A stretch of DNA of 64,000 nt from Cyanidioschyzon merolae. Lineage: Eukaryota. A program made the translations under genes and the position numbers. The stretch is taken from assembly GCA_000091205.1 (NCBI GenBank), contig AP006502.2; one strand, written 5' to 3'. Numbering within the stretch: the first letter of the stretch is position 1; each line of letters starts with the position of its first letter. Under the pieces are notes generated by a model, which saw nothing but the letters and a program-made list of their open reading frames with translations, did not search any database and had not been told where the DNA came from. This document shows positions 2,163 through 60,800 of the stretch, one piece after another.

Positions 2163-2858
2163 TTATGAGCTGGTCCGGTTCGTGTGTGTCTTGATGATCT
2201 CCAGGATCTCCGAATAGGCTTCGTATTTGGAGTTGCGAACAAGACCGCCGAACTTGCGCGGTTGCTCCTGCGCCAATAGCTCCTCGACCAACTGTTGAGC
2301 AGTGCGGTTTCTCGAGTCGCGCAACTCAAATCGCAAGAAATCACACGCTGCATCAGTCAGTGCACGAACCGTTGCTGGACGTGCATACCCGCATGCCATG
2401 TGCAGCGCGGTGAGCCCCTGCGAGTCTTGCGCGTTCACATCGACACCAGCCTTGATGAGCATTTCGACGACTTCGGCCAAACCGAGCGCCGCGGCAAAGT
2501 GCAGCGCTGTTCGGTTATCCCGGTCGACAGCGTTCACATCGAAAGGAAGACCTCTGCCGTCCAGGTGAGCCCGCAGTAGCTCTCGCGCTCGTTCCGCGTT
2601 CGTATTCGGTGGCTGCAGCGCTGTGTGCAACGGCAGCGGGTCATAGGTATCGCGCAGGTGCACTTGTTCCTTCTGCGCACTATCTGGCTGTTTTCTCCAA
2701 AACGAGCCAATACACTGTAAACTACGCGCAGATGACGCTTGTCTCGGAAGTTTTTGCGTCGAATACGAGCGCAGTGGCAACCGCTGTCTTGTCAACAGCC
2801 GTCGCTGCAGTCGAGTCGCGTGCGCAGGGCTCGAGGAAACCAGAAACATGCTTTCCAA
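2163..2858 (-). CDS. Ankyrin-repeat protein with an S/R-rich N-terminal extension that may be a targeting peptide.
   Basis: Two clear ANK repeats are present (..NRTALHFAAALGLAEVVEMLIKAGVDVNAQDSQGLTALHMACGYARPATVRAL..). The exact start is uncertain. Confidence 0.55.
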   Translation of the reverse strand: MESMFLVSSSPAHATRLQRRLLTRQRLPLRSYSTQKLPRQASSARSLQCIGSFWRKQPDSAQKEQVHLRDTYDPLPLHTALQPPNTNAERARELLRAHLDGRGLPFDVNAVDRDNRTALHFAAALGLAEVVEMLIKAGVDVNAQDSQGLTALHMACGYARPATVRALTDAACDFLRFELRDSRNRTAQQLVEELLAQEQPRKFGGLVRNSKYEAYSEILEIIKTHTNRTSS

Positions 2859-3614
2859 CGTGCTTCACTGCTGCCAACTTGTCCCGCCTATACCAGGCGT
2901 CAGGTTCTACAAGTCGCCGCCTCGGGTAGCGTAACCTCTATGTGTAGTCGACGATAACGACGACAACGACGAAAACGTCGAAGTCGTTGGTGTATGCTGG
3001 CGTCTTTAGTGGTAATGACAGTTGGCGTCGTGGTGCCGGAGCAGGCCGCGGAGCTCATGTGCGTCGCTCCGCGGCTGGTGCTCCCAGCGCGCCGTCCGGT
3101 TTAGGCACGTTTTCCATCGCGATGACCCAAGTGCGTCAGCAGCTGATCCTGGCGATACAAGCGTTGTTGACGAGTGCGTACATTTGCATATGCACTGATG
3201 CTTGTGGGATATTGCGAGCGTTGAATAGGACTGCATGTATATGTCTATGGACACGAACACGCATTGGCTGGTAAACAAAGACTGAGGTACGTTCTGGTAG
3301 GGATCATTGCCGAGGCGATACGCTATCGCCAGCAACAAGAGCGGCATCACAGTTCCTGGGAGACGATTCGTGCGGTCCGACGCCGCGCTCGGTCGTTGGC
3401 AGCCAACAACCGAACATTCGTCTTCATAATCTCTATGCCGAGGCTGGTCTCATAAATCCATCATGGGAATACGCTGGGGGCGCGTCGTTCGGCAGATACT
3501 GTTGCAGGTTTTTGCACGTTTCGTGCTGCGTTTTTACGACGATGTCGGACACATCTGTGGCTTCCACAACGCTGGGTCACGCTGAGCATGTTCCAGCGTT
3601 CCTGAACGGGTGTT

Positions 3615-4523: not shown

Positions 4524-6744
4524 GAGTCAGATGCACCTCAGGAAGGCTCACGTTGACGAAACGCACGTACCCTCTAGAGGAAGTTTTTCGTGGGTATCAC
4601 GAGCGCGCGCGTTACCCAGACACCGACTCGCAATGCTCGACGTCGCACCGCCGGGTGCCGCTGCGCGTGCGTCGGGATCGGGGGCTGTTTGCGCGCGTGC
4701 CGCGACACCGGCGCGACGGCAGGCGTTCCCCCACAGCGGCCACCGCCGATGATTGCCACGGAGGCGCAGGGGGCCAAATTCGCATGGCGGCGGATGCAGT
4801 GCGTGCATGCCACGTGGACATGCATCGCCCTCGTCATTCGTTCGAACTGACACGGATGCGATGATGCCGAATCGGGATTCGAACATGCGTGTCCCGTTGG
4901 TGTTGGTGCTGTATCCGCAAGGAGCGCTTGCGCCAAGATATGACTATGAGCGTTCCAGTGTTTGCTTGTTTGTCACGGGAGCAGCCAAGGACTTGTCAGA
5001 TTGTGTGCGGACCCAGTACATCACATAGATCCCACTGTCGAGTCAGTAGTTTGGAGTTTGATCCAGTTGAAACCGGTCGAGGACGGTCGTGCGTGCGAAC
5101 GCCGTTCGCGTGGTGCGGGGTTCTCTCGTGGCTTGTGGCTGTGCTCATTGGGACCAGAGCTGCGGTTTCGAGACGTCTTGATGTATGGAAGTCGTCCAGA
5201 GATCGACTGGGACTCGCGTACGCTGCCTCACGGAGTCCGCGAGCCAGCAGCACCTCTGCCACTGCGACGGTGGCGAACGTGGGTATTGCCGGCGCCGGGG
5301 CTCCGACGAGCGCGTTGGCGGCGACCTCAGCGTTGAAGAGCTCACCGGCGGGGCCAGCGGCGGCCGTACTCACGGCAGCCGTGTGGATGCGTTCACGTCT
5401 CACGATTCTACTGGTGTTGGTGCCGTGTACACTCGGGGGTTGGTTGCTGGTCGAGGGTCTGCGCGAGTTCGAGAAGCGAAAGCCGGTTTGGCGAACTGCG
5501 AGTCCGGATGTGGCCACCAGAGATCAAGGGAATCAATAGTCCTTGGTATACATCCCGCAAACTTCATGTATGTACAGTTTCATGCGAACCATGCCATCTA
5601 CAGCACGTGTCAATTGTATATATCGTTCTAGGTGCAGGGCTCGGAAGGCGCTTGCCAGCAAGGCCGTGTACTATGCGAATCGACTGGAGCTGATCTCGGA
5701 AATCGAGTGATCGATACTGTTTGAGAAAAAGCATCGAAAGTAAACGCACTGTCATGCATCGCTGATCGTAGCGCGAACACATTGTGCACGAGGCGTACTC
5801 ATTGGGGCGAATACAAGGGACCGGCGTTCGACGACGGACCCCGACACCGGAACGCGATGCGTGGACCAGTGCACCGATAAACTTGTGGTGCGTCCACGTG
5901 ACAGGTTATCATGCAGGCACCGTGCCGACAGTTCTCGTAGGTTCCTCAGGTAGGTAGCGCTTTAAACGAGCGTGCATCTGGCGATACACTGGGGCTGCCA
6001 TTCGAACTGGGACAGGTTTCCTGCGCTCTTTCGAGCTCAGGAGACGCTGGACTACCTGTGCTGTCTGCTGCGACTAATGAAATAACCTATAAGCGCTGGG
6101 GCGCTTCATGGTGAACCAAAGCTATGCGAAACAGGCAAATTTTTCGCGTTGCTTGGCCCCTGCCCAGCTCGCATGCGTTACGGAACGAGCATGCCGCGTA
6201 TCGCCAACATGCGATATGCTCGTCCTGAAACCGCACCACTGCACGCAATCTATCGCATCCTAAACACCCAAGCGTCTCGAGTTGTCAACCGTGCGTCACG
6301 TGCTCGTGCGGCATCCAGATGCAGCAACGATGGCCCCAGCTGCAGTCCTGCGCTCGCTTTTGGAATGGCAGCGTTTGTTCTATGTGGCCAACACGCCCGT
6401 CCACTGACTGGCGTTCGAGGCTGTTCGGCGTGGCGCCCTGGATGCACGACCAACACCCGATGCACAAATGATACCTCGCATGAGTCGGGGCGCATCGTCG
6501 GTGTTTGCGCGCTGTCTGAAGCGGCATCATTCCCGTCAAGGTCAACCGGGACCCGCTTGTGCGATGTATCGACGCTCGTGACCAGATGAAGTCGTCCGTC
6601 TCCCGTGAAAGGCGGCTTCATAACAACCACGCATTCCAGCTTGCTAGTTATCTTGGGTGTAATCATGCTTTCCCAAACTGACACTGCAGCATTGTCCTAC
6701 GTTTTGTTCTTCACCGACACCACAGCCATCGACTTGAGCCTCTT

Positions 6745-8694
6745 TCAGGCCGAGAGTACCGCACTCGACGCATTCGGCAACGCTTCCCTCCACTGCAGCG
6801 AATCCTTCAACGCCAGCGTAAGCATCAGTGCCTGGGCATAGTTCAGTCGCGGATCGCAAGCTGAATGGTACGCGCGAGCGAGGTCATGAACTGCGGTTCG
6901 GGTGGCGCCACCAAGGCACTCGGTCACCGCTTCGCCGCTCATTTCCAGGTGTATGCCACCAGCAGGCACACCTTCGGCAGCGGTAATTTCAAAGAATAAC
7001 CGCATCTCGTCGAGAACCTGCTCACAGTCTCGAGTCTTGAATGAATTGCCGTTCTTGTCCCGAACACTCTGGGTATTCGCATGCATCGGATCGCACATCC
7101 AGACGACTGCGAGGCCGCTGCGCTTCACCGCTGCCATGAGCGGTGGAAGCTTTCGCTGGAGAGCATCCACACCCATGCGTGTGATCAGTGTCAGACGTCC
7201 GGGAGTGTTCGCGGGATTCAGGATCTCGGCTAGCGCAAATACTTGCTCCAGTGTAGCGTTTCCAGACAGTTTCACGCCAATCGGATTGGAAACACCTCGA
7301 AGAAACTCAACATGAGCGCCATCAATCTGGCGAGTGCGCTCACCTATCCAGAGAAAATGAGCACTTGTCGCATAATACTGCGGCGCTGATAATAAATCGA
7401 TAGGCGATCCCGCGTCTCGGTTCAGGTGCTCCAGGGTATGTGCATTGCCCGAAGGAGACCAGTCGGCAAGGCGCACTAGGCCTTCCTCGTACGGAAGTAA
7501 AAGTGCTTCGTGCGACGTGAACACATTCTCGATCACGTTTGTGTCGATACTTGTTACATGGCGGCCAGTGCTGCTCATCACTATGATTTCTTCATCGATT
7601 CCTTGCACCAGGTTTTGAATCGCCTTCACCAGGTTCGAGTCCACGACGCTGTCCCAGGCCAGTTTCTCGCTCAAAATCCTCAGCGATTCCATCGGAGACG
7701 CATGCAGGTGCTCAAGAACACGCAGATGTTCCAGAGACGCGGACGCATGCCGGTACGCCTGCAAGAGTCGCTGTGGGTCCGGAGTTCGCGCTCTGCCATT
7801 CGGTGCTGCGGAGTGCACGATGTCGCCCCGGAACGACGGCAGCCCGTCCGCATCCACAGGAGCAGAGCGAGGCTTCGCAAACTGACCTGCTATGCGTCCG
7901 ATTCGAACGATACGCCGCTTGCTCCCAGTACTCGATAAGATAGCCGCCTGGGCAGCCAGCAAATGGTAGAGGCTTATGTTGTACTCGAGGGTGCGGCTCG
8001 AGAACGTTTCGGCACAGTCCCCACCCTGAATCACGAACGCCTCACCGTGACACGCCGCGGCCAAGTGCTCGTGCAGTGATCTGATCGATTTGGGTGTCAC
8101 GAGACCGGGGAGTGTGCGCAAACCCGCTTCGACGAGCGCCAGCTGGTCTTTATCCGGGTACACGGGTAGCTGGTGCGCAGGTCGCTGGCGCCAGGAGCTC
8201 GGTGACCACGGCTCCGACCCTACCTGCCGACCCCCGATCGAGACGCTGTTTCGCAGTCCGAACGCTCCGCAGCCATCGCCGAGCCGTACGCAGACCTCCG
8301 CGCCCCGTTCAACGTAGTAGACGCGGCTGCTCAGCGCGACGCTTCCACACCGACGCACCGCTTGCCAAGCAGCGCGCCCGCTCACTCTTCGCCGAAACGG
8401 ATTCGACACCACAAACCCTTCCATTGAACGTATAGTGCACGTAATAGCGGACGAAGGTCGCTTCGATGCAACTGAGCCCGCAACGGCTTCCGAAGCTGCC
8501 GCCCCCGGAAGCATTCTGCGCTTACAGCCAACCTCGCTGCTGCTGTTGCCGGACGCAAAAACGGCGGCAACCGGCATTCCGGCCGCCGCCAATGTCGACG
8601 CCTTCCTGCAGCGCATCCGGACACGTGTCTGGTTCCCGGCGGCGTTTTGATCATCGTTCACCTCAAATGTGTTCCACATTCCGGTGCAGGTCAT
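6745..8694 (-). CDS. 3-deoxy-D-arabino-heptulosonate-7-phosphate synthase, class II (plant/microbial type), with an N-terminal extension of ~170 aa.
   Basis: Class II DAHPS motifs: GGDCAETF, IGRIAGQFAKPRS, WIGERTRQxDGAHVEF, CDPMHANT, HLEMSGEAVTECLGG. The true start may be an internal Met downstream of the transit-like region. Confidence 0.9.
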   Translation of the reverse strand: MTCTGMWNTFEVNDDQNAAGNQTRVRMRCRKASTLAAAGMPVAAVFASGNSSSEVGCKRRMLPGAAASEAVAGSVASKRPSSAITCTIRSMEGFVVSNPFRRRVSGRAAWQAVRRCGSVALSSRVYYVERGAEVCVRLGDGCGAFGLRNSVSIGGRQVGSEPWSPSSWRQRPAHQLPVYPDKDQLALVEAGLRTLPGLVTPKSIRSLHEHLAAACHGEAFVIQGGDCAETFSSRTLEYNISLYHLLAAQAAILSSTGSKRRIVRIGRIAGQFAKPRSAPVDADGLPSFRGDIVHSAAPNGRARTPDPQRLLQAYRHASASLEHLRVLEHLHASPMESLRILSEKLAWDSVVDSNLVKAIQNLVQGIDEEIIVMSSTGRHVTSIDTNVIENVFTSHEALLLPYEEGLVRLADWSPSGNAHTLEHLNRDAGSPIDLLSAPQYYATSAHFLWIGERTRQIDGAHVEFLRGVSNPIGVKLSGNATLEQVFALAEILNPANTPGRLTLITRMGVDALQRKLPPLMAAVKRSGLAVVWMCDPMHANTQSVRDKNGNSFKTRDCEQVLDEMRLFFEITAAEGVPAGGIHLEMSGEAVTECLGGATRTAVHDLARAYHSACDPRLNYAQALMLTLALKDSLQWREALPNASSAVLSA

Positions 8695-9763
8695 CAGGTG
8701 CTTTTTCGCGGTTTTGTAGCGGTTGCGGTCGAAGTGCGTTCATTTTCAAACATAAGATACCCTAGGGAAAGGTGCGGACATAAAATTCGGGGAACTTGGA
8801 GGGCGGCATTGCTGGGTTCTACAAAAAACCCGAAAGAAGTCCATGTTCTCGCTGACCCGCGCGCGAAGCAGAGCGAGTGACGGACAGGAAGAAGAAGAAG
8901 AAGGAGATAGAGGAAACACTGTTTGCCTGACAAGTCGATGACGAGACTGCATTAGCACAGAGGGTATGCGTTCGAGGAATCCTTGCAATATTGAGTTCCC
9001 CTAGAGGCAGTGCATGTAAGGAGTTCGTAAACCTGAACGCTAACGCTGCTTCAAGTATAAGACGACGTGCTGTGCTGAGGACGAAACTCGAGGACCTGAC
9101 GCGAACCAGCATCGTCGGGCAGCCTCTCAGGCTCGAAGTATGCCTCGATAAACCGAAATCGATAGCAGGCGGCCAGTCAAAACAGGCTGGAAGGCGTCTG
9201 CGAGGGCGTAGATATATATAAACGCTCCATCGTCGTAGGGTGTTTACGAATGACTGAACGCTCAGATACTGCAGCAGCGCGTGCAGCGCATTCGCGGCAG
9301 CGCACACGCATGCGCAACGGCGCGACGATGCAGGCGCGCACATCGATCCAGTGCGTTGTTAGCGGACTGCCATACGCGGGCATCGAACACCAGCGTGTTG
9401 CCGGCGTGCACGATTCCTGTAGGCAACTTGCGGTAGCGACTGCCGCCTCGAGAGTGCAGCGGAGGAGATCACACACATAAATGTATTCCATTGGATTGGG
9501 GGTTCTCGGCGAGAAGGTAACCTACCGTGCAATCCATTCGAGATTAGAGGCTCTTCGTGCAACAGTCTCCGCAACCGGCAAATGCGCTACGGACATCGAG
9601 GGGCAGGGCGCTTTTCGCCAAGGTCTGTGCACCCGTAATGATAGTATCCAGCACCAAACAATCCGCGTGTGGAAGACGTCGTCCCCCAGGCCGGATGTCT
9701 CTCCGAAAGCAGAACCCTTATTCCCATCATTTCCTCTAGTCGTGGAGCACTGGTTTTGCTGGA

Positions 9764-12142
9764 ATGCTCGCGTGTCCAGGGGCAGCTCGGGGAGAACGCC
9801 GCACCGTCAGCGACGACGCACCGTCGCCGCGGCGCGATCAGCGCACCGTTTCGCGTCGGAACATTCGCCGCGTGGGGCCGGCAGCGCGCGCCTCTCCTTC
9901 GCGCTCCATGCATCGTGGCGTCGCCATCCCTGCGACTGTCCAGCCACGCTCCTATCTTTGCATTGTGTTGCGTGGAGCACGTATGGTCGAGCCGTCTGTG
10001 GTGTGGTGGTGCCTGGTGGAAGCGCTCAAGCGACGCTTACTCCGTCAACAGCGCTGGCAGTTATGGCTCCTGGTCGTGGGCCTTTTCCTTCTTTGTACGA
10101 TACGCCCAAGGATGCAGAGTGTTCTGGATGCCGCCAGTAAGGAACCCGGGTCCCTACTGGATCCGAATCCAATGTATATTCCTGCGTGGGACGCACAAAC
10201 CGGTGCGGTGCTAACAGCTTTTGATCCTCAGAGGCACCTCCTGCCGTTCCACTTCATTGCATGCTCTTCAGATGACTGGGGCCGCATCGCGGATAGCGTC
10301 CCACTATTTCGCGACTCGCATGCACGTCAGGAGTTTCTGGCCGTGGCGTCTGAGGAGCTGAAGCGTTCACTGCGCCAGACCGACTGGTCCATGGCAACCG
10401 TAGAAACCGTGCGTGATCTGCAGCGACTCCACGAGTTCCTACTTCGCCTGCAGGAGGCTGCAGGAGAACCGCGTCAGCGTTTCGTGCTGTCACCCATGTG
10501 GGTTGTCGGCGGACCCGACATCCCCGCCATGCAAAACCAGCTCGATATCAAACGGGAAGGCAGCACCGGGCCGCTGCGTGAACGATCATCTGACGCCCAG
10601 CTCTGGGTGGACGCTCGCGTCCAGCGCGCAGCTGCGACCCCGGAACGCCGGGGTCGCATGCGTCTGGTACAGCGGTCGCCTAGGGAGAGATGGCGAAACA
10701 GTCGCCAGCGGCTGCATGAAACGCATGCCGAGTATCCGCAGCCGGGTGTCGGGCAGCGCTCCACGGACCCCGTGGGCGAAACGCGGCGCGCTGGGGTAAC
10801 TTTGCAACGCCCTGATTCCCTGAAGAGGTTCACGGGCCAATCGTCGACGTGGGGATTGCTGACGCGGCCGGTCGTACCTACAGACGCACAGGCTGTACAC
10901 GCTGCACCAACAGGTTTCCCCTATCGAAGCATGTACATGTGCCGGCTTTCACGAAACGGTGCATCAATACTTCCAGGCCGCGATCTGATCGAATCCATTG
11001 AGGTTGCCGAATGGTACCGTAAGCTGTGGTACGATCGCGTGTGGGCACCTCAGTTCCACGGCAGCGCCCATATCCATCCACATCGCTGGCTCGAAGCGCT
11101 CGAGCGGACACGACCTCTGCGGCGACAACGAAGCACTGCAAGGACGCGAATTATTCGCAGCGCCTACGACAGCCTCCGTGAAGGCTACGTCTACGCGGGA
11201 AACATCACCGCTCTGCGTTCTGAGTTCGCGGATGGCGCTTGGTCACCGGCAAGCCTACGAAAAGGCATTGAGACATTTGCAGGGTTTTGGGGTTATCGAC
11301 CGCGGGTTATGAGCTCGCCGCATAACACCTGGACGCCGTCGTTCGTCCAGCATCTCGTTGCGAGTCATGCAGTCTTTGGCATCGATGCTGGCACTGGTCA
11401 ATGTGCGACGCTCGTGATTCCAAACGCGACTCAGCGCTCCGTTTCATGCATCGATCGTGAACCGTGGGATACGTTCGCGGGGCGTGCCGCGCGTCTCGAT
11501 GCGCGCATGCCACTCATCCAGGAGCGGATTGCGGCGTTGAGGCCGGGATTTACGAGCCTCGCCTGGCACGCACAGAATGCACTGAGCGCGACGACATCGC
11601 CCCGGGTGGCTGCTGCGCACCTGGAGCATCTGGAAACGTTTGTGCATTGGGTACAGCGCCAGAATCATACTGTTTTCGTGACATCCAATGAACTTCATCA
11701 AATTCGTTTGCGTGGATGGAGCCTCGAGGTATGGCCAGATGCATTCGTTTATCGAAATTTTCTCCCATACGACATACTCGTATTGGTTCCGTGCCTTGAG
11801 GACATGTTCTCAGGAGCTTCGCCATGGGAAGCAGCGCCTTTACGCGTCGTCCGGCTTGATCAGCGTCTCATCCGCGCTCCGATCTCACAGTCGAGTCCCG
11901 AACTGACGCAGTGCCGACCCTGGTCGGCACTGATGGCGGATTCACAGCACGGGCATGCACTGCCTCGGAGCTTACGATACATTCAGCGGCAGAAGCAGAA
12001 ACGGAAGCAGCTTGCCGCCACTCCGGCCTTTCGAGGTTGTCGCTGTCAGCGCATTCGATTGCCCTCGTTTATGGATGATGGCGTCCTTCTTCTGCCAGGC
12101 AACAGTCATTGGATCGAGGTTCGGCGCCTGTCGCACGAGTGA
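9764..12142 (+). CDS. Large hypothetical protein (792 aa) with an N-terminal hydrophobic signal-anchor segment. No domain recognised.
   Basis: It is a long uninterrupted ORF of balanced composition. A predicted TM helix (WQLWLLVVGLFLLCTI) lies near the N-terminus. There are no recognisable catalytic motifs. Confidence 0.45.
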   Translation: MLACPGAARGERRTVSDDAPSPRRDQRTVSRRNIRRVGPAARASPSRSMHRGVAIPATVQPRSYLCIVLRGARMVEPSVVWWCLVEALKRRLLRQQRWQLWLLVVGLFLLCTIRPRMQSVLDAASKEPGSLLDPNPMYIPAWDAQTGAVLTAFDPQRHLLPFHFIACSSDDWGRIADSVPLFRDSHARQEFLAVASEELKRSLRQTDWSMATVETVRDLQRLHEFLLRLQEAAGEPRQRFVLSPMWVVGGPDIPAMQNQLDIKREGSTGPLRERSSDAQLWVDARVQRAAATPERRGRMRLVQRSPRERWRNSRQRLHETHAEYPQPGVGQRSTDPVGETRRAGVTLQRPDSLKRFTGQSSTWGLLTRPVVPTDAQAVHAAPTGFPYRSMYMCRLSRNGASILPGRDLIESIEVAEWYRKLWYDRVWAPQFHGSAHIHPHRWLEALERTRPLRRQRSTARTRIIRSAYDSLREGYVYAGNITALRSEFADGAWSPASLRKGIETFAGFWGYRPRVMSSPHNTWTPSFVQHLVASHAVFGIDAGTGQCATLVIPNATQRSVSCIDREPWDTFAGRAARLDARMPLIQERIAALRPGFTSLAWHAQNALSATTSPRVAAAHLEHLETFVHWVQRQNHTVFVTSNELHQIRLRGWSLEVWPDAFVYRNFLPYDILVLVPCLEDMFSGASPWEAAPLRVVRLDQRLIRAPISQSSPELTQCRPWSALMADSQHGHALPRSLRYIQRQKQKRKQLAATPAFRGCRCQRIRLPSFMDDGVLLLPGNSHWIEVRRLSHE

Positions 12143-12644
12143 ATCTTGACTGTAAATCACCGCCATGCATGCATGTTTGCATGAATCCATGCTTCCATAA
12201 CGTACGTCATGGTCGATCACCGCACTGTCACAGCGATCACTGGCTATCAAGGAACACATGCACACGACTCCACGAATGCTCCGACTGGGCAGGATGATCC
12301 GCCGTCCGCCAGAGACGACGCACACCGCCCAGCGCCTGAGGATGTACTCGCGGAGACGCCGCGACACCCGAACACCCACTAAAATAGCCCCGGCGATCGA
12401 ATCACGCCTCCAGCGACCGCTGCAGTGCATGCAGCGTTGTAGCAACCGGGCACCGGGTGCTCGAGAAACACGAGGCCGCTCGATCGCTCCTAGCCTCGAT
12501 GACCAACGGTAGCGAGTAAGCAGCCGAGGGAGCGCTCAAACTTCTACGGATCAACAGTTATCTGCTGCAGAGTTATCGGGAGTCCATACTTGACCAAACC
12601 AACACGGTTCGACGCGCACCTGTTTTCCTCGGCAGGATAAGCGC

Positions 12645-14134
12645 ATGTCTGCATGCGGATGCACCACTCTGCGCACCAGAGAACAGGGTGCCGGATCGAA
12701 TCGCCTGCAGCGCCGCAGATGCACCACACGAAGAAGTCGTGACCCGCCGGCGCGGTACGAGCGCACTACGCGCAGCATTCGAGCAGCGCTGTTGTGCACC
12801 AGCGTTGACGACTGCCAGAACACTCTTCCGGAAAACCTATTCCACAATCAGAACACGAGGCAGTCGCTTAAAATAATGCTTACTTTCGAAGCGTTTGTAG
12901 CGGGTGCTATCTGGGATATTGAGCGCAATGGCTCGTGGCTGGCACCGCGCTGGCGCCGGTCAAGCGTGAAGCGTCGGGCGCCGTTGGGGCAGCGCCCGCC
13001 CGTGAGCGGAACCCGGAACTTGGCGGGAAAAGAGCCAAGCGGACCAGCACGGTCGGAGGGTCCTTTCTTTACCTCCAAATGGGGACGCTCCGAGAGCAGT
13101 CAAGCGGGATCTCAGGCCGGTGCAGGTCGCCAAAAGTTCTTGAACAAGAGCGAGCGCGTTCCCGAGCCGCTCGAAGACCCACTGTTCGAGTCACTGCTGG
13201 GACCGGAGCCCGCTGAGAAGCGCAGCAAACACAAGTCTTCAAAGAAACAGTCCGTAGACAGGCTGGTGCGAGGAAAGCAAAAGTACTTTTTCGAAGGCGC
13301 AGTATCTGAGACGGAAGCGTACAACATGTTTGCGAACTTGCTAGAGAGCGAGTCGCTCACGCAATATGCTGCCCGTGCAGAGGTCGAATGGTTCGATGCG
13401 AAGCGCCTTGAGGCAGCGTCTAAGAATAGGCGTGGATTCCCCTCCGTTGGCGAGATCCAGGACCTCCTGTACGATGAACTCATCGACACCGACGGCAAAC
13501 GGTGGCGCGAGACCGTTGTGCCATCGGACAATCGCGTGCTCCTTGTCTTGTTTCAGGTTTCCCCGATTGACGTGGAATTTCCCAGATACTTGGAACATTT
13601 TCACGCTGCGTTAAATCTGACGCCAACGGATGCTATCCATTTGATCGCGGTTTCGCGGGAGAAGCCATCAACGAATCGCAAAACGATGCGCAAGCTGAAC
13701 TTACGCTTTCCGCTTTTGAGCGATGAGCAGGGTGCACTTGGTGCGCTTTTTGGGACAGGAAATAAGCCCCATATGTTGATTTTCTATCGAGAGAAAACGC
13801 CGAGCGGCATCGAGGGTTGGTTCTTCGATCGCTGTGCGCGCGCCGAACTACCCAGCAAACTTTTGGAGAACACCGTTGACTATGCCCGCAAGCTAGTTGC
13901 CCAACGATTGCAGGCGAGCATGCGGGCAAAGCAGAATCCGACGAGCACCGGCGCCAGAGCGGCTGGCACTGATTCCGTTGCGAACACAGGAATGCAACCG
14001 GTGCCGCCGGGACCAGGTGCGTCACGCTCGCCGCAGGCCGCTGGTGCCCAGGCGACGTCCACGTCGACCGCGGGTGCCGCAGCACCAGAGCGCAGGATCG
14101 GACAGAATCCTCCGGCAGCAGGGCGCACTGAACT

Positions 14135-25843: not shown

Positions 25844-26817
25844 GCTTCAAAGTATATATGTCAGTCTATGAATTGAACTATATTACCTGTGTTAAAGTGA
25901 ATTTTAGCACCGTATGTTACGAGCAGTCGCGAAAGCTCCACACACGCACACACACAACCGTTGTATACCGAGCGGAGCAAAGAATTCGAGCCATTCGTGT
26001 GATGCGACGCAGCATGCGCTCGCCCGCAGCCGCTCGCCCGCAGCCGCTCCGTCGTGCGCATGCCGCGCCGCATCACACGATCCCAGATGTGACCGATCGC
26101 GGCGAACGACGTGACATCGATTTCCTTCCGATTCGATAGGGCGTGTGTCCGCTGACCACGGATCCAGGACTGCGGGATGGATGCAGGTACTCGGGGAAGC
26201 GTGCATCATGTTGCACTCTAATTTCGATTACCGTTAAGTTCTCTTGGGCGTGCGGGCCGTTTCGTACGTTCTATCTTGAACCGAGTGCCTGCCGTGCTGT
26301 ACCCATCATAGCACCGAGACCGCTGGCACGGATGCCGTATTGAGAAAGCACGCGGTATTGCGCGAATACTGAGGGTGTCGGCTCGATGCCATGATTCGTT
26401 CAACGCGGCACCGCAGTGCATAATCGTGCCGGGAGCCAGCAAGCTGTGCATGCGGACATCCTGTCTGCCGACGCGCGGAGCGATATGCTACGAGTCCGCT
26501 GCGACCAGGGCGACGCCCAGACGCAGCGTAACCGTCCCTAGTGCAAGAATAAAGTGCGATGCCGACGATTTGCTCAGGTATTGCCACAGCACGCGCCACA
26601 GAACAGAGCGTGAAACACGAGTCCAACAGACTTGGACGCTCCGCGGGACCTAATACCGAGGAGGTAAACTCTCGAGAATATGGAAAACCTTTTCTTCCTT
26701 CCACGCTACCGAGAAAGCGAAACGAAATTATGATACGGTTGCTAGTCAGTGATAAGTTTCTGTTCTTTCCGCACCATACTGCATCACAGGGATGATGCGT
26801 GCGCAGCTACGAGCCAT

Positions 26818-27338: not shown

Positions 27339-29222
27339 ATGGCTCGATCTTACGTACCGCCCCATATGCGGCGGCAACTGGAACAGCAGCTCCGAGTAGG
27401 TGCGGCAGCAACCGAGCGCCCACAGCCGTTTCAGGGAAACGGTGCTCCCGAGGGGCGTGCTGCCTCATCTGGGGGCTTCTTTCGAAGTGGTTCTGGGGCG
27501 TCAAGAGGAGGCAGCTCTTTTGGAGGTGGCGTGATGGGTGCTCGGGAACGCGGCACCGGGAGCGCTGCTCCGGGTGGCGGTCGGCGTTGGGGTGCGGCTC
27601 CGACAGGCCCTGGACACCAATCAGGCGCGTCATCGCGCTTGCAGCGCCTTGGATTGTGGGAGGAAACAAACCCCTACTACAGCAGTGGGCTGGGGAAGCC
27701 TCAGGAACAGGATCACGCTGCCGCTGATGCGAACGGCGAGGTTCTAGAGCTTTTCAACGGCCAGAATACTGGCATCAACTTTGACAAGTACGACGATATT
27801 CCAGTAGAAGTTTCCGGTGAGAACGTCGTACCGGAGATCATGTCCTTTGAGACCAGCGGTATGGATAAGATTCTCCTGCGGAATGTCGCACTGTCAGGGT
27901 ACCGCAAGCCCACACCTGTGCAGCGGCACGCGATCCCGACGGTGATGGCTGGTCGCGACCTCATGTCATGTGCCCAGACCGGAAGCGGGAAGACTGCAGC
28001 GTTTGTGCTGCCTGTTCTACATCAGATGCTGTTGATGGGCGGCCCCGCGCCACCGCCATCCTCGTCGGGCGTAGGCGGGATTTCCTCGCGCTCCCGTTGC
28101 TCGTATCCAACGTATCTGATTCTGGCTCCGACGCGGGAGCTTGCATCGCAAATCTTCTCTGAGTGCCGGAAGTTCTGTTACGGCACCAGTATTCGCGCCG
28201 CCGTGATCTACGGTGGCTCCGAAAATACCCGTGAGCAACTGCGCGCCGTGGAGAATCAAGTTGATATTGTGGTGGCAACACCCGGGCGCCTTTTGGATTT
28301 TATTGACCGGGGCCGCATCCATTTGGCAAACGTCCGGTTCCTGACCCTTGACGAGGCGGACCGTATGCTCGATATGGGTTTCGAGCCTCAGATCCGGCAG
28401 ATTGTGGAGAACTGCGACATGCCGGCGGCTGGCCAACGCCAAACGCTCATGTTCAGCGCAACCTTCCCACGGGAAATCCAACGGCTTGCCTCCGACTTTC
28501 TGCACGACTATATTTTCCTTGCCGTGGGGCGAGTCGGTTCCACCACGGATTTCATTGTGCAACGTATCGAGTTTTGCGAGGACCATTTGAAACGAGAGAT
28601 GCTGCTAGATCTCTTGAACAGCATACCCGGCTTGACCTTGGTTTTTGTAGATACAAAGCGAGCCGCCGATGCTCTCGAGGACTTTTTACTGCGACACGGG
28701 TATGCGGCGTCGTCGATTCACGGAGACCGGAGCCAACGCGAGCGCGAAGACTCGCTCGCAGCTTTCCGTTCAGGACAGACGCCTATTCTCGTTGCAACGG
28801 ATGTGGCTGCTCGTGGTTTGGATATCCCGAATGTTGCGCACGTCGTCAACTACGAGTTGCCAGCAGCCATTGATGACTACGTGCATCGGATTGGCCGAAC
28901 TGGTCGAGCTGGCAACCAGGGCATCGCGACCTCTTTTGCGAACGAAAAGAATCGGGGCATTGTACGTGACCTCATTGAACTCCTACAGGAGGCCGGCCAA
29001 GAGGTTCCCTCCTGGCTCTATACGATGTGTCAGGCACCAGTAGCCCGGAGCGGTAGCGGTCGAGCGGGGCGTGGCGGTCGTTTCGGCGGACGCGATATGC
29101 GTCGCGAAACGGGTGCTCCACGTCGACCTGCATTCGCAGGGAATGCATCATCGACCTCGACGATGCGCGACGAGCCCTGGGGAGGTGGCAACTGGCGTGC
29201 CTCCGGCGGAAGCGCCTGGTAA
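27339..29222 (+). CDS. DED1: DEAD-box ATP-dependent RNA helicase of the DDX3/Ded1 family.
   Basis: Helicase motifs are present: [56 protein letters not shown]-rich N-terminus and RGG tail follow the Ded1 pattern. The ORF stops at TAA. Confidence 0.9.
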
Positions 29223-46591: not shown

Positions 46592-47841
46592 TGGCGGTAC
46601 ACCCTTTCACGTTTCCGTTATCGCTCTTAGCAGGGACAGCAACTCCACGCAGAAGCTGCGAAGCAAGCAAGTACCCGCTGTAGCTCAAGGCGGACGCCAG
46701 CGCTCGACGCGTGCCTCGGGATCTTCGCACGCGCGCCTGCGCTGCCGTTGGGCAGCCGCAGGTCGCTTATGATCGATGGTTTTTTTCGATGACAAAACGT
46801 TTCCATGGACTGCGGAAAACAGATTGCGGGTAGGTAATGGCAATCGAAGAAGCGTCCATCATGGTGCTACGCCCTATCTAAAAGTTCTATTACTTATAAT
46901 TCCCTTCGGATGAAATGGTCGTTTCGTGCGTTCTCTCTTTCGCCGAGTGCCTACCGCGAGCACCCGCCGTCGCGCGTATACCGCTGGTGCGCATGCCCCA
47001 CCGAGACAGAACCGCCTTTCTATGCTACTGAGGGCGTCCGCTCGAAGGATGATTCACCTGACACAGAATCAGGGCTCATTATCATTCTGGGAGCCTGCAA
47101 GCTGCGAGGCAGATATGCCGCTTGGGGCAGAGCGAAGCGATACACTAGGAGTCTACCGCGATCAGGACGACGCCCAGACACAGCATCCCGCTCCTAGTCT
47201 CCGAATATACTGCGCGTTGACGAGTTGCTCAGGTCTCGCTAAAGCACCAGCTACTGCAGAGTCGCATGAAGCACGAGTCGGGGAGACTCGTCCGGCTCGC
47301 GGGACCACCTGCCAATAAGATAAACTTTCGATAATATGGAAACCATTTCCCCTTTTAACGGTTATCGTTGAGGGCTGCGCAATTTTCATCATGTTGCTCG
47401 TTAGTGGTTCGTCTATGTTCTTTTGTCTGCAGCGCAGTCCATACGCGCACACCCGTATCTTGTAGGCATCAGACAAGACGCGTATCAGGCGGTTGAAAGG
47501 AAACGCGATCCTGACCATGAGCTTGTAGCTCTATGGTAAAAGACGTATTAGGGTTGAAGACGTAGCAAAGTATAGTGTTTTATCCCAATTGTGCTCCAAC
47601 ACTCAAGATAGTGTATTCATGTGATTTTTCACGGTTTATAGCAGAAGCGTTCGAAGTACGTTCTTTTTCTAAAAATAAAAATAAAGTTGTGGAAATAGAA
47701 GTGGAAGATCCTGGAGAGCTGGTATCCCCGGTTGCCGGAAACAGACGAATAACATTGCGGAGCAAAGAGGAATCGGGGAAGACGAAGAAGCAAAAAGGGG
47801 AGGCCCGACGCCGAAAGCTGCAAGAAAGACGATAATGCGAC

Positions 47842-49551
47842 GTGATGGTGGTGAAAGCCTGTCTTCTTAAACATATCAAGGATCCTTACAGGGAAAAGTT
47901 GCGAGACGCTATCAGAAACCGTATCGACTCGTACTCCAAGAGCATCGTCAAGGCGTCGTCAGGTCTGATGCATTTGGCGAGGGGGATGTATCGCGACGTG
48001 AAGCACATGGAAACAGTCGAGATTCCGGACGAGTTTTTCGATAAGACCTTTAGTCGTCAGCTGATGTTTGGCACAGGGGAAGCTCCGAGGGAAAATGAGC
48101 GAATGCATGCCCTCCACGAGAAACATCCCTTTTACAGGTTCGAGGGTAATCGAAACAAGGGGGACTGGGGTATTTACGACAATGGGGCGATGAAGTACCT
48201 CACGAATCTGAAAAACCATTTGACAGTGAACCTCGAACGTTTCATGATACGCGCCGTGTTTGCGCTCCACCCGGGCATCTCTCGCAATGGAAAATGGGCG
48301 ATTATCAGTGGCATCATGAAAGATCGCAAGCATGAAGACGAGATCGAATTTGTCGGAGAAAAGGCGTCAAACGAGAGCACGAGTGAGGATTCCGTCATCC
48401 GCGCGGTTATACAAGAGCATCGTGCAGTCTCGGGGCTGACGAACCCAGCAGAAAATGTATTAGATTTGAAAAAAGATAAGGAAAGATACTATCGCCTCGT
48501 CCTGCGCTATTTCGTGTTTTTGGACCGTGAACTCGAATGCAAGGCAGAGATGAAGCTGAATGGGACAAAAAATGAAGATTCGGGGAGACGGAAGGCTGCG
48601 CTTCTGGGTAAGCGCTTCAACGTCGTTCCGTTATGCAACATCAAGTCACATTTTGACACCATCGACTCCAGAATCGCTCACGGCAGCATAAAGGAGATCA
48701 GTCCGGAGTTCGATGTAAGGAGGACAGAGTTCACTGGTGGAAACCGGGAGACGTACTGGAAGAACATCTTCAATTTCAAACGGCTCAAAGTCAGCAAACA
48801 AAAGGTATTCACTGGGATGATCGAAAACAATGGGGTAGCCATGTGTGTCCACTATCGGCGGTCGAAGGTGGATCGCCCAATCGTGCCTTTCGCTTCGCCC
48901 TCTGCGAAGCATGAAGAAAGCAAAGAGGCGGATCCTGTGATGCAGGAGGTGCAGGATAACGACTCTGTCGTTGGCGCGGACCCGGGGAACACGAACATCG
49001 TAACCATCGCAGTACCCAAGCACGGGGTATATGGTAACGACGGCAATTTACGTCAGAAAGACATGCGTCTTTTGAGAATCTCGAGAGCGAGATGCTACCG
49101 AGAATCCGGTATAATGAATGTGAGGAAGAAAATTTCTGCATGGGATGCAGGAATGAAGGATCACCTGGAAGCCACGAGCGCGGTGACGAGCCGAGAAGCA
49201 GACTTTAAAGCTTTTCGGAAATTCGTGGAAGTTCGTGTTGCGCATTGGGATGCCCTGTGGGAGGAGTATACCGAGCCCAGATGGGCTCGTTTGCGTATGA
49301 ATCTATACTGTGGAAAGCAGCGGGCGTTCGCGAATTTTTTCAATGAGTTGAGCGCCTTGAAGGAGGATGAAAATCAGAGGCTAGTAGTAGCATACGGAGC
49401 AGGGCGATGGACGACCCAAAAAGGGTGTACACCAGCTCCAACGACGAGGGTGTACAAGGAGTGCGCACGGCGTTTCGTTACGAACCCGGTAGATGAGTTT
49501 CGAACATCGTATACACACCATGAACTGTGGTGTACACTTCAGAGGGTCTAG
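47842..49551 (+). CDS. Fanzor-like protein (eukaryotic TnpB/OMEGA-family RuvC nuclease homologue). This is the main ORF body, and it is interrupted at the C-terminus.
   Basis: A ~380-aa N-terminal region precedes the RuvC-I-like motif [16 protein letters not shown], whose Asp codon is at 48979-48981. Near the end, [15 protein letters not shown] resembles the TnpB TS-x-C zinc-finger lead-in. The ORF ends at an in-frame TAG (49549-49551). An in-frame TAA at 47833 separates it from an upstream 86-codon ORF with a K/R-rich NLS-like tail. Confidence 0.7.
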
Positions 49552-49763
49552 ATGGAAAAGTGTCCGGGGAGCCCCGAGGATATAGCAAAGTACGGACCGC
49601 TGACAGACGAGCAAATGGAAAGGATAACGAAAGTGCGCAGGCTACTTGCATTAGTGAGTAAACTCCTAACGGCACGAAACAGGTGGAGTTTGTGAACCGA
49701 GACTTGAACGCCGCTATCAATGTAAGGAGATGTGCGGTACTGGAGAATAGACCTCCAGACTAA
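49552..49763 (+). other. Displaced C-terminal segment of the Fanzor/TnpB-like gene carrying the RuvC-III motif. It reads as either a pseudogene tail or an exon after short introns.
   Basis: In the frame of positions divisible by 3, codons 49683..49763 read VEFVNRDLNAAINVRRCAVLENRPPD*, with RDLNAAINV being the canonical TnpB/Fanzor RuvC-III motif. It is separated from the main ORF by the TAG. A 29-nt GTGAGT..CTAAC..AG element (49654-49682) would splice frame 1 into this frame in phase. Confidence 0.6.
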
Positions 49764-50020
49764 ACAAGAGGGAACTTTGATGGACAATTCTGAAAGTTTT
49801 ACTATATGAGAAAAAGTTGGAAGCAGTTGTGGGTGGCCGGTCGAACAAGTCTGGCAGGCGTCTGCACATCAGTTGGAGACGTTTCGTTTAGGGTGTGTCG
49901 TTCGCCACTACTGTACACTGCCGGCAGCATCGTTCGACTTTAGATAGGCGTTTGGTGTTGGCTGCGTCTTAGACCTATAACGAGGCAGACCGATACGAAG
50001 CTCGGTGAAAGGAGCCGTTT

Positions 50021-51781
50021 ATGGGTCCCGCCGCTGCTCAGCCGCCACAGCTGGCGGCGCACGGACTCGACGAGAGCGGCTCGTTCCGGGACTCGGGCAC
50101 CGGCGTCTTTGAAGACAGCTACACTGCACAAGGCGGTTTCGCAGAGCTTAAAGCTCAGCCGCTGTCGGAAGCGTCGATGCCTCGACGTAAACATCAGACT
50201 GAAAGAGGAAAACTTGGCCGAGTAGACGGATTGTTCGAGGAGGCGCCCCCCGGTGACTCGGTTGTTATAGATACCGTCACTGCAGAAAACGGTTCCAGCT
50301 CGGCACGTAGGAGGTTTGAGTGGCGGTTGGCACTCCGTAAGCTCGGTCCGGCTTTTCTAATCTCAATCGGGTACATGGATCCGGGAAACTGGGCTACGGA
50401 TATCGAGGGCGGCTCACGTTTCGGCTATCGGCTGCTGTGGGTGCTGGTTGTCTCCAACGTCATGGCGTGGCTGCTACAAACGCTTGCTTCACGCCTGGGT
50501 ATCGTGACAGGTCGCCATTTGGCACAGCTGTGTCGCGAGGCGTATCCGCGCATCATCGCGATGACGCTGTTCGCGCTCGCCGAAACAGCGATCATCGCTA
50601 CGGACCTGGCGGAAGTCATTGGAACGGCCGTTGGCTTGAATTTGGTCTTGGGTATCCCGCTCCTGCTCGGTATCCTGGTGACAACGCTCGACACGCTCCT
50701 GCTTCTGATGGCACAGCGTGCTGGTGGGCTACGTCGGATCGAACAAATTGTCCTATCTTTGTTATTCGTCATCACGATATGCTTCGCATTGGAGCTGGTA
50801 TTGAGCAAACCCAGTTTCATCCAAATGATTGGAGGGCTGGTACCGCGTATCGACGGGCAAAGCCTTCTGGTTGCTCTAGGTATGTTGGGCGCGACGGTGA
50901 TGCCGCACAATTTCTACCTCCACTCCGCCATTGTGATTCGTGATGCGACTGTGAGGCGCCCTGCCGACTCGTGCGTGTCCACGTCGGCGACACGCACGGC
51001 AGACGGGACAGCGCATAACGGACACGACTTGGCAGGCTGCACTGATGATTCGGATCGCGGGCGCGAACTCGAGTGCGTCTATTCAGCGATCGACTGTGCG
51101 GTTGCGCTGAATGCGGCGTTCTTTATTAATGCGGCGATTCTTATCACAGCGGCATCCTCTTTTTGGGCGAATCACGTGCAAGTGGCGACCTTGCAGGAAG
51201 CACATGCCCTTTTAGAGCGCGTGCTACCCATTCGTCTCTGGGGTCGCGTGGAAGTTGCGCCGCTCGTCTTTGGGATCGCTTTGATCGCAGCAGGCCAGTC
51301 AAGTACCATCACCGGAACACTCGCCGGCCAGTATGTCATGGAGGGCTTTCTAGGACTTTCTCTGCAGATGTGGCAACAGCGATTACTGACGCGGCTATGC
51401 GCGGTCGTGCCGAGCGTGCTGGTTATCATCCTACTTGGGCCCGAGAGCACCTACAGGCTCTTAATTCTTTCCCAGGTAGTTCTATCGCTTCAGCTGCCAT
51501 TCGCGATTGTGCCCATGATTCGATTCACTGGGAGCAAGGCACTCATGGGTGAGCGGTTTGCCTCGGGAATGTGGACTCGTATCTGTGCCTGGTGCGCTGC
51601 TGCGTTCATCATCGTACTGAACCTGTGGATGGCTGGCTCGATGCTCTTCGATGCCTTCCGGGTGCAGTCTGGTCGAACTGCTGGCGCAGTCGTTGGCGGT
51701 GTTCTCGCCGTTCCGCTCACCATCTATCTTCTCGGTGTACTGGTCTGGCTGTGTATGTACAGAGGGTTTAGAAATGAATGA
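50021..51781 (+). CDS. NRAMP: NRAMP-family divalent metal transporter (MntH/DMT1-like).
   Basis: The NRAMP motifs are IGYMDPGNWATDIEGG and MPHNFYLHSA. The ORF has about 11-12 TM helices and stops at TGA. Confidence 0.9.
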   Translation: MGPAAAQPPQLAAHGLDESGSFRDSGTGVFEDSYTAQGGFAELKAQPLSEASMPRRKHQTERGKLGRVDGLFEEAPPGDSVVIDTVTAENGSSSARRRFEWRLALRKLGPAFLISIGYMDPGNWATDIEGGSRFGYRLLWVLVVSNVMAWLLQTLASRLGIVTGRHLAQLCREAYPRIIAMTLFALAETAIIATDLAEVIGTAVGLNLVLGIPLLLGILVTTLDTLLLLMAQRAGGLRRIEQIVLSLLFVITICFALELVLSKPSFIQMIGGLVPRIDGQSLLVALGMLGATVMPHNFYLHSAIVIRDATVRRPADSCVSTSATRTADGTAHNGHDLAGCTDDSDRGRELECVYSAIDCAVALNAAFFINAAILITAASSFWANHVQVATLQEAHALLERVLPIRLWGRVEVAPLVFGIALIAAGQSSTITGTLAGQYVMEGFLGLSLQMWQQRLLTRLCAVVPSVLVIILLGPESTYRLLILSQVVLSLQLPFAIVPMIRFTGSKALMGERFASGMWTRICAWCAAAFIIVLNLWMAGSMLFDAFRVQSGRTAGAVVGGVLAVPLTIYLLGVLVWLCMYRGFRNE

Positions 51782-57829: not shown

Positions 57830-60800
57830 GGTGCTTTGCGGACGTCACCGTTCGCAAGGGTTTCAAAAGTCGGCGTCGCTGGCCAGCACCCAGGAACACC
57901 GCAGTCAAACGCGCCACCGGATGCTCCAGTTGATATTCAGAGAGCGCGCCCTGAGTACTCTGTGGTCGTAAGCGTCGATTCTGCAGCGCAGCACGCCACC
58001 CCAACGTGTACAACGTGTGTGAAGCGACTTCACGTTGCAGTACAACGGAGCGCCTGCAAGAGCACAGGTTCAAGTAGGCAACGCAGTGCAGCTGCCGACT
58101 TGCCGCAACGCAATGCAGCGCGACGTGCCGAGTCTGACGGCGTTACAGCCAGCGTGTTGCTGCTCAAGCGGTCCTCGATGCACTGCCTGCTGGAATACCT
58201 TTCCATGCAGGTCCTTCTTGTTTTTCGTTTGGTTTTCTCGCAGGTACTCACTGAAAGGAATTTATTGGGTTGCTTGGGGAAAAGTTGCGTAAAGACTTGA
58301 TCCTGTAAATACTAGCTTGCGAAGACGCAGACTCATTTGCACAAGTCAGCAATTCTGCGGGCAGCACGTGGATGACGCACCCTGTTCGTCGACGTTATCC
58401 TGAACGCCGCGCACTCAAAACATAACCTGTGGAACTCTATGTACACGGCCATCTCCTCGTCCATACATGCTACTCGAGACGTTTTCTACCGAATAATACT
58501 AGAGAAACCACAGGTACTGAAGTGTCCACAACATTGAAACGAACGATGACGAAGGGACACCGATGGAGAACGGAAACAGGTGCGCTTCTGCTGGAGATCG
58601 TCGTGCGTTGAGCAACAAACGATCGATGTCGCACTGAAACGCGATCGCTCAGTCCAACACGAACGAGTTTTCGACTCAGTCTACGAGACCTCGTTGGGAG
58701 AAACGCCAGACCGATACATGCGGTACTCCAAACGGGCTAATCATCTGACCGAATCGGAGAGACAAGCGAGCGTCTCGAAAATGTCATTCCGAGCGGCGAT
58801 TCAATCGACAGGTCACCTGTGAAGCGACAAGCGATCTTTTCTGTTCAGCAATGCGTCCATCATCGAGGCGGCCCGGTGGCTTCTCCGCCGCGCATTCCTC
58901 TGTCTCGCTCGTACACATCGTCGCTTTCCATCATTCACAGGCGGTGAACGAGTACGCAGCTCCGATTCGCGTTGAACCGGTCGTCGTGTTAACCTATTCT
59001 CTCAGGTTCACTTGACTCGAATGCATCGTGTCTACTGTAGCAACGCCATTTTGACGCTCGCGAATCATTGGATGAGTCACTCGCATCCGTGGCACCGTTC
59101 TTCGACAAGTGGTTCGATACCTTCACCAGTCTTGGACTGGTATATTGCCGGCCTGCTCGTGGGCCGGAAGGAGCGAAAAGATGCACTCCGGTCCATGGCC
59201 GTGCACGCAACGGAACAGGTGACGAAAAACTGCATGTGAGGAAGTTGAGATACATGCACGAAAAAGGCGAGTTTCGGTGCTACTGCCCAACCTGCGCATC
59301 TGAATCCCGAGTGAAAACGGATATTGGATAGATTCAGCACATCCATGCAAACCGGCTGCGCAAAGGAACAGATGAAGAAGGTGGCGGTAACTACGAGCAA
59401 GTATGATAAAGCCTTTGCACAATTTTGTGTGCAGCATTCGCTTAGCTCGTTCAAGGGTTCTCGTTTAAAGTGAGAATATGGAAATAAGTTGGCGTGGATG
59501 ATGGAGACCGAGGGGATATCCATCCGCACGCACTCTGTTCGACCGAAGCCAATGTCGAGGAACGAGACCCCTCGTCCATCGTTCAAGCTTGAGGAAGAGA
59601 ATGACGCTTTCGTGAGCGTGCTTCTCGGATTTCAGGAAATAATCGCCGCCACCCCACCTCTGTATGAAGACAACGGAGCCAGAAACCAGAATGGAAACCA
59701 CATGAAGCTGCTCAAACATTGACGGGACTCGTTATGATCGGGGATCGGTCACGATGACCCCCAAGAGGCATGCCCGCAGTAGAGTGAGCGTGCCAAGACG
59801 CATGCCGACGCCCTCAGTACAGCACCGGGCAGCGGCAGATGCCTTGCGCCCTGCATTCAGAGAGAGCACACACACGAGCGCTCAAACGAAGCATGCGGAC
59901 GACGTATGCTGGGCGATCATGAGACCGCTCGGGATTCGTCAACGATGTCGATTTTACGGATGCAGGAAGCAGGTATTCGCCAAATTTTCGAATGTGTCGG
60001 AGACGGCAATGACGAACAAGTTGGATCGTTTCGTGGCAGCCTATGGCGCTGGACGCAGTGTGACGCCCAGAGCAGCACTCCTGTATCTTCGACGAGCGCG
60101 TACACCGAGTGCTGGAATCGATGGTATACGATTCCTGTCGATGCGCTCCCTAACGACATACACGCATCACAGCGACGGATGCACACACGGAAACAGACGG
60201 ATAAGAAGAGACGGAAATCGACATGGACACACGAAACGCTGGGCGGTAAACTCTGACCGAACATCAAATGGCGAAGCACTCGAAAACGAGGCGCTCGCGA
60301 TGGTGTAACACGACCAGCAACCCGACGTGCAAGCATGTTCTGCGTACCCCGAGACCTGAGCGCCCCGCTCAACGCCTGCAAAAGTATCGTACGTACGGAG
60401 CGCTCAGCAGGTTTGTTTCAAGCGATACTTCGAAGGCATCGCACAGTGCATCGTGCGGGCATTGTGCTAGAACGCCGATGACTTGCGATGGAACGAGTCA
60501 GTGGCCAGAAGCGAGAGCATCGGATTCTTGCCTTGAGCAAAGCACGCGCATGGTACGGTTCAGGTATCCGTGAGAAAGGCCAAAACGCGCGGCATATACG
60601 TCTACATGGATCGGGAACGATTTTCCCGGTCAATAGTTGAACCATGATATTGTTCCGGTATACGACACCAGCGAGTCTATGAAGCTTAGAATCTATGGAT
60701 GTACGACGGAGCAAGCATGCATATCCGAAGACGCGCCCAGGTTACCATCGAGAGCAACTCGGCCGAGTGCCAAGTCAACCGAATACGTCTGCTGCAACAC

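Follow-up and report, generated by a model that had tools for sequence, protein, structure and literature searches.

A broken Fanzor1 reading frame in Cyanidioschyzon merolae is probably a decayed copy of the single-exon transposon family CMe-1A

Introduction

SpuFz1 is a biochemically characterised Fanzor1 nuclease, and RNA-guided nuclease activity is established for Fanzor1 proteins other than the one considered here. In Cyanidioschyzon merolae the Fanzor1 group is represented by CMe-1A, a family described by Bao & Jurka in 2013 (Mobile DNA 4:12, PMC3627910). It has about 150 copies, each roughly 80% identical to a consensus of about 3 kb, and it lacks terminal inverted repeats (TIRs) (PMC3627910). 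Its protein of 734 aa is encoded by one exon (PMC3627910, supplementary table), and its first 635 bp correspond to a separate element, TE-N2_CMe, which has about 70 copies of its own (PMC3627910). Intact proteins are still encoded by some CMe-1A copies (PMC3627910). The genome in which the family resides is extremely poor in introns, with 27 of them in 26 of 4,775 nuclear genes (PMC8831791; PMC4829280).

CMe-1A resembles bacterial TnpB of the IS200/IS605 type in the D-E-D order of the RuvC residues and in the lack of TIRs. The conserved 3' end of CMe-1A, with a hairpin placed exactly at the element boundary, recalls the right-end omega RNA of TnpB. On the other hand, CMe-1A differs from the bacterial system in that it has no TnpA partner, resides in a eukaryotic host and has a basic, NLS-like N-terminal extension.

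The present study deals with a broken Fanzor reading frame in a stretch of 64,000 nucleotides of C. merolae DNA, hereafter the window. A first-pass annotation, made from the letters of the window, had left the choice between a pseudogene and a gene with tiny introns.

Results

Assignment of the locus to CMe-1A

The 3169-bp CMe-1A consensus and the 734-aa CMe-1 protein were taken from the supplement of Bao & Jurka 2013 (PMC3627910). End-to-end alignment of 46787-49950 with this consensus gave 84.6% identity with 11 indels of 1-4 nt, and blastn gave 84.2% over consensus positions 1-3169 (3175 columns). Judged by these alignments, the copy belongs to the CMe-1A family, already published in 2013 from the same genome. 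It has in common with the published family the genome, the 5' TE-N2_CMe module of 635 bp, the lack of TIRs and a single-exon Fanzor1 frame of 734 codons; the consensus is intact whereas the window copy carries six disabling lesions. The features of the copy are collected in Table 1.

Table 1. Features of the CMe-1A copy and of its ancestral coding region, in window coordinates
Feature	Position	Strand	Basis or remark
Complete but decayed CMe-1A copy (Fanzor1 family)	46787..49950	+	End-to-end alignment with the consensus
5' module, TE-N2_CMe	46787..47423	+	Consensus 1-636, 81.9% identical
Non-coding leader of the Fanzor1 gene (5' UTR or promoter region)	47424..47688	+	Consensus 637-905, upstream of ATG 906
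Lost start codon, ATG>GTG	47689..47691	+	ATG in the consensus and in 38/42 other copies
Ancestral Fanzor1 coding region, now in pieces	47689..49891	+	734 codons in the consensus; codon-by-codon comparison
Nonsense TAA, consensus codon 49 (Gln, CAG; CAG>TAA)	47833..47835	+	Other copies CTG 29, CAG 7, other sense codons, never stop
Longest remaining ORF, 569 codons	47842..49551	+	First ATG at 47845; contains RuvC-I and RuvC-II, lacks RuvC-III
Nonsense TAG, consensus codon 621 (Glu, GAG>TAG)	49549..49551	+	GAG in 46/52 other copies, stop in none
1-nt deletion, codon 658 (Thr, ACA>A-A)	49660..49661	+	Frame change before RuvC-III
RuvC-III motif NRDLNAAIN, Asp codon 49701-03, out of frame	49695..49721	+	Aligns with NRD..AA.N of green-algal Fanzor1 (hhalign)
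Third premature stop, TAA, consensus codon 692 (Leu, TTG>TAA)	49761..49763	+	Consensus comparison
Second 1-nt deletion, codon 701 (Pro, CCT>-TT)	49787..49788	+	Consensus comparison
Ancestral stop TAG, kept	49889..49891	+	Consensus comparison
3' terminal non-coding end	49892..49950	+	Homology with all copies stops at 49950-49961
Family terminal hairpin, degraded in this copy	about 49930-49950	+	Hairpin in most copies, two stem versions

The 5' module adjoins the Fanzor core in about one third of the metagenomic copies. In the window it was also found alone at 26153-26768 (+), at 33547-32903 (-), where it forms the 5' portion of a deleted copy, and as a further partial copy at 27090-26989 (-). 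An inverted-repeat search for TIRs found nothing joining the ends of the element; all 13 pairs were short, internal and chance-like. Rfam and tRNA scans of the window gave no matches. A search for an orthologous copy of the locus in another strain found none, and the flanks gave no matches.

Two ORFs of the window were identical to proteins of C. merolae 10D, namely 27339-29219 to XP_005539203.1 (RNA helicase) and 50021-51778 to XP_005539209.1 (manganese transporter), both on a contig of 1,621,617 bp. The host genes examined with Pfam were single unbroken ORFs with full-length domain matches, which fits the reported near-absence of introns (PMC8831791; PMC4829280). The earlier statement that host genes of the window use all three stop codons was correct, as 13 long ORFs end in TGA (8), TAA (3) and TAG (2), and the standard genetic code therefore applies.

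Relation to green-algal Fanzor1 proteins

When the profile of the CMe family was compared with a green-algal Fanzor1 profile by hhalign, a probability of 98.8% (E=8e-17) was obtained for the region of RuvC-II, linker and RuvC-III. BLASTP of CMe-1 against VCa-1 gave E=5e-13 over about 400 residues, from RuvC-I to RuvC-III. The green-algal proteins (CRe-1, -4, -5, CVu-1 and VCa-1) have the C-terminal core VxxYGxG ... P.P ... VDEFRTS ... NRDxNAAxN in common with the CMe family, at an identity of only 24-27%. They contain the zinc-finger cysteines CxxC...CxxC, whereas the CMe consensus has THHELGC and LLALVS instead. Where CRe-1 reads TSKTCYNCGC...VCNDC, the CMe consensus has a stretch of ten residues followed further on by RGLLALVSTT, and the zinc finger between RuvC-II and RuvC-III is absent from the family consensus. 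The absence of these cysteines is a family-level trait and not a lesion of the window copy.

Pfam scans that took in the window ORFs and 34 family members gave no match for the Fanzor1 protein at E<=0.1, the best touch being the Cas12f1-like TNB domain at E 0.22, and a sequence-profile search of the PDB gave no match at E<=1. For the nearest of the long homologues (P0001), an AlphaFold2 model built from a 34-sequence alignment had a mean pLDDT of 49.6, a pTM of 0.38 and values below 50 in the RuvC half, a quality too poor to support a fold comparison.

Lesions of the reading frame

The six lesions relative to the consensus are a lost start, three premature stops and two 1-nt deletions. When the coordinates were recomputed from the sequence, the description of the broken frame was confirmed. 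The TAA at 47833-47835 is in frame with the main ORF, and the TAG at 49549-49551 terminates that ORF of 569 codons in the same frame. An upstream ORF of 86 codons (47575-47835) shares the frame and ends in the tail KTKKQKGEARRRKLQERR, and the peptide VEFVNRDLNAAINVRRCAVLENRPPD, which carries the RuvC-III motif, is encoded in a different frame that stops at the TAA at 49761-49763. This last TAA had been taken as the end of the gene; it replaces Leu692 of the consensus, so it is premature, and the ancestral stop lies further downstream. The 86-codon ORF also had to be read differently. It begins 5' of the ancestral start at 47689-47691, now GTG, so that its first 38 codons are read-through of the 5' UTR, and what stands of the earlier description is the NLS-like tail, which is the true N-terminal basic region and corresponds to KTKKQKREARRQRLQERR in the CMe-1 consensus.

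The RuvC motifs are recognisable in the copy as GADPGNT (RuvC-I), VDEFRTS (RuvC-II) and NRDLNAAIN (RuvC-III). The codons of the catalytic residues Asp (48979-48981), Glu (49495-49497) and Asp (49701-49703) are all kept and no longer lie in one frame. The conserved Gly of HHELGC is Trp in this copy.

Over the coding region 47689-49891 the copy shows 78.3% amino-acid identity to CMe-1, with a dN/dS of 0.38. The 50 substitutions private to the copy are distributed over codon positions 1, 2 and 3 as 12, 19 and 19 (p=0.38 against a uniform distribution), whereas the 254 positions at which the copy departs from the majority together with other copies are distributed as 63, 64 and 127 (p=1e-7). The even spread of the private changes argues for neutral decay of the copy. 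Taken together with the bias of the shared changes to the third position, it indicates that purifying selection acted on the diverging family as long as it was active, and that the copy then drifted unconstrained. A dN/dS of 0.38 rather than 1 would result from most of the divergence having accumulated in once-active lineages before the death of the copy, and this value is compatible with inactivation at various times.

Comparison with other copies

Comparison with other copies of the element, which the first-pass annotation had proposed as a check, was run on metagenomic sequence: 80 loci yielded 55 distinct copies, and about 50 of these copies cover the columns of the intron candidates. Their mean identity to the consensus was 85.6%, a level similar to that of the window copy. 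Sense codons stand in them at the sites of the TAA at 47833 and the TAG at 49549, and codon 692 is the only lesion codon for which this does not hold throughout. At that codon the other copies have TGG (13), TCG (8), TAG (7), CTG (6) and TTG (5); from this distribution the stop may be recurrent or common to a subgroup, and is not necessarily a private lesion.

A column analysis called at least one stop or frameshift in all of the 55 other copies, a count that over-calls stops in a variable region of 75-nt tandem repeats, for example at codon 446 of one copy (L006) in which the ORF is actually continuous. What the count supports is therefore that no copy was seen to be unbroken from the ancestral ATG onward. 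When the conceptual translation was used as query in a protein search, 70 relatives with identities of 57-80% were obtained, all of them metagenomic and all predicted as contiguous ORFs, and the longest of these are unbroken across the positions of the window lesions. Three related loci likewise read without interruption across the lesion sites. Near-intact ORFs of the family, of 742 and 752 codons, are present in hot-spring metagenomes.

Internally deleted copies retain the same 3' end of about 240 nt. Across copies the terminal hairpin of the family has two stem sequences, related by compensating changes. For the last 270 nt of 20 copies, RNAalifold predicted a weak structure with a covariation term of -0.12 kcal/mol, which is almost nil.

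Discussion

Our data indicate, with a probability of about 94%, that the copy at 46787-49950 is a pseudogenised and neutrally drifting member of CMe-1A, that its Fanzor1 gene is of a single-exon kind and that the GT..AG strings within it arose by chance. According to this explanation, CMe-1A would be a non-autonomous transposable element and the window copy one of its approximately 150 old copies. The element would carry a single-exon Fanzor1 gene for a eukaryotic TnpB-like RuvC nuclease. Since its insertion or inactivation the copy would have drifted neutrally, in the course of which the start codon would have been lost, three nonsense codons gained and two single bases deleted. A full-length protein would no longer be possible, and the product of the longest ORF would be without RuvC-III.

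It had been considered that the gene might be functional, with two spliceosomal introns of 29 nt that excise the TAG and restore the frame of RuvC-III. Both GT..AG strings (49532-49560 and 49654-49682) are present as described, each with a GT start and an AG end; the second carries GTGAGT and CTAAC, and its excision does connect the two frames in phase. However, the arithmetic of the reading frames does not allow a gene to be recovered in this way. If the first candidate alone is removed a TAA is reached, if the second alone is removed the TAG stays, and if both are removed RuvC-III is out of frame, because excision of 29 nt at the first candidate shifts the conserved downstream peptide; no combination gives an ORF through RuvC-III. 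The TAA at 47833 and the lost ATG are untouched by either candidate. The consensus and about 50 copies show both segments as conserved coding sequence. The segment homologous to 49654-49682 measures 30 nt in 47 of 51 copies, and the window copy is the only one in which it measures 29 nt. The AG at the 3' end of the second candidate and its CTAAC are absent from all other copies compared, and its GTGAGT is a conserved Val-Ser codon pair. The coding span contains 11 pairs of the form GT-N25-AG where 10.2 are expected by chance. The annotation of the family gives a single exon (PMC3627910), and the whole host genome has no more than 27 introns (PMC8831791; PMC4829280). Tiny introns are thus refuted by the arithmetic of the frames and by the other copies, and the probability left to them is negligible; as far as can be judged from sequence, both GT..AG strings occur by chance within coding sequence. 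In the original alternative of pseudogene or tiny introns it is the Fanzor pseudogene that has held, and the introns have been given up in the face of the consensus, the other copies and the frames themselves.

The remaining explanations accept a broken frame in the data and differ in how it is read. If the stops and frame changes were errors of sequencing or assembly, the organism itself would carry an unbroken ORF; single-base deletions are a frequent kind of error, and two of the lesions are of this sort. But both deletions lie outside long homopolymer runs, and substitutions account for the other four lesions, two of which need two changes each (ATG>GTG, GAG>TAG, and the double changes CAG>TAA and TTG>TAA). 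The copy is about 15% diverged from the consensus with its private changes even over codon positions, as in real neutral decay. A same-species population matches the window at 4769-13694 with 99.46% identity and without gaps, which points to an accurate assembly in a stretch that excludes the element locus. Such errors are accordingly a very improbable cause of the broken frame. Programmed recoding, i.e. readthrough of stops or ribosomal frameshifting in the normal expression of the element, would agree with the calls of a stop or frameshift in each of the 55 other copies, counted by a column analysis that over-calls stops in the tandem-repeat region. Against it, the positions of the lesions differ between copies, the consensus is an unbroken ORF of 734 codons, the sites of the TAA at 47833 and the TAG at 49549 are free of stops in all other copies, and all three stop codons serve as terminators in host genes, so that the chance of recoding is vanishingly small. 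It is also conceivable, though highly unlikely, that the ORF 47842-49551 gives rise to a shortened, nuclease-dead protein that has kept some role or acquired a new one. Such a protein would have a REC-like N-terminal half with RuvC-I and RuvC-II, and would be without the NLS region and RuvC-III. The length of the ORF, its ATG at 47845 and a dN/dS below 1 against the consensus could be taken in favour of it. The low dN/dS is, however, accounted for by divergence among once-active lineages, the private substitutions show no bias in codon position, the conserved Gly of HHELGC has become Trp, and the database search gave no close homologue of this shortened form, its best match being 67-80% identical.

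The pseudogene reading concerns the window copy, and the family from which it came is a separate matter. By analogy with other Fanzor1 proteins, the ancestral CMe-1 protein may have been an RNA-guided nuclease that used an RNA from the 3' end of the element. It could further be supposed that CMe-1A acts, or until recently acted, as an RNA-guided nuclease system, that is, a Fanzor1 of a thermoacidophilic alga working without the usual zinc-finger cysteines. The sharp 3' boundary, the hairpin in two versions, the 3' end kept in deleted copies and the near-intact ORFs are what suggests it, and we consider it unlikely.

For the locus itself, the stops and the frameshift can be understood under the standard genetic code and without introns or recoding, and we recommend that 46787-49950 be masked as the pseudogene of a transposon. 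For the family, about 150 genomic copies together with hundreds in hot-spring metagenomes provide material from which an ancestral thermoacidophile Fanzor1 could be reconstructed.

Variation and decay in the CMe-1 family

The hot-spring metagenomes hold near-intact members of the CMe-1 family. One of them (L023) has an ATG-initiated open reading frame of 742 codons which starts at the internal Met53, and another (L006/L001) encodes a protein of 752 amino acids (P0001). Column analysis of 55 distinct copies revealed none that is intact from the ancestral ATG. A further source of variation is a 75-nt (25-codon) tandem repeat at consensus codons ~400-430, which encodes ...KHEEKKEADPATQEVQDND(L/F)VV.. 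and is present in one to about five units between elements (L001, L003, L008, L011, L021 and others). The decayed CMe-1A copy of the window and the published consensus have one unit each.

Green-algal Fanzor1 proteins carry CxxC...CxxC between RuvC-II and RuvC-III, whereas the consensus of the CMe-1 family has THHELGC...LLALVS at that place (alignments A3 and A4). In two distant relatives, P0060 and P0061, the second half of this region still contains a Trp-Cys. It seems that this lineage lost its zinc finger step by step.

Ends and modules of the elements

In the metagenomic loci L001-L085, most copies finish at the 3' end with a hairpin that lies exactly at the homology boundary. Its stem exists in two versions, CGTTCGA/TCGAACG and CGTTTTTC/GAAAGGCG, both of which pair, and the flank following ...GGCG is frequently TTnGnTGnTG. 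The hairpin of the window copy is degraded (49930-49950). TE-N2_CMe, a separate element equal to the 5' module of CMe-1A, directly adjoins the Fanzor core in about one third of the metagenomic copies, and in a few loci it begins 39 nt past the 3' end of the core. In the window, its solo copies or fragments lie immediately upstream of an RNA helicase gene.

Additional elements in the window (C. merolae 10D)
Feature	Window position	Strand
TE-N2_CMe, solo copy or fragment	26153-26768	+
TE-N2_CMe, solo copy or fragment	27090-26989	-
CMe-1A copy with large internal deletions	8694-8750, 8970-9201	+
CMe-1A copy with large internal deletions	33547-32903, 31707-31602, 31486-31250	-
Strongly degraded relic of a Fanzor1 lineage other than CMe-1A	~59450-60480	+

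The degraded relic shows 23-35% amino-acid identity to CMe-1 and to the metagenomic protein P0061 and is broken by several stops and frame changes; VAAYGAGRSV, TTYTHHSDGCT and VPRDLSAPLN are still readable. A single Fanzor1 family was listed for C. merolae in the 2013 survey (PMC3627910).

Positions 4769-13694 are 99.46% identical, gap-free, to L086, a JGI metagenome contig of sample 3300054705, and this match shows that an organism very closely related to the laboratory strain 10D occurs in that environmental sample.

Both internally deleted CMe-1A copies retain the start-codon piece (consensus ~832-968) and the same 3' end of ~240 nt (consensus ~2844-3084), which suggests either that they form a deletion-derivative subfamily or that the 3' end is required in cis.
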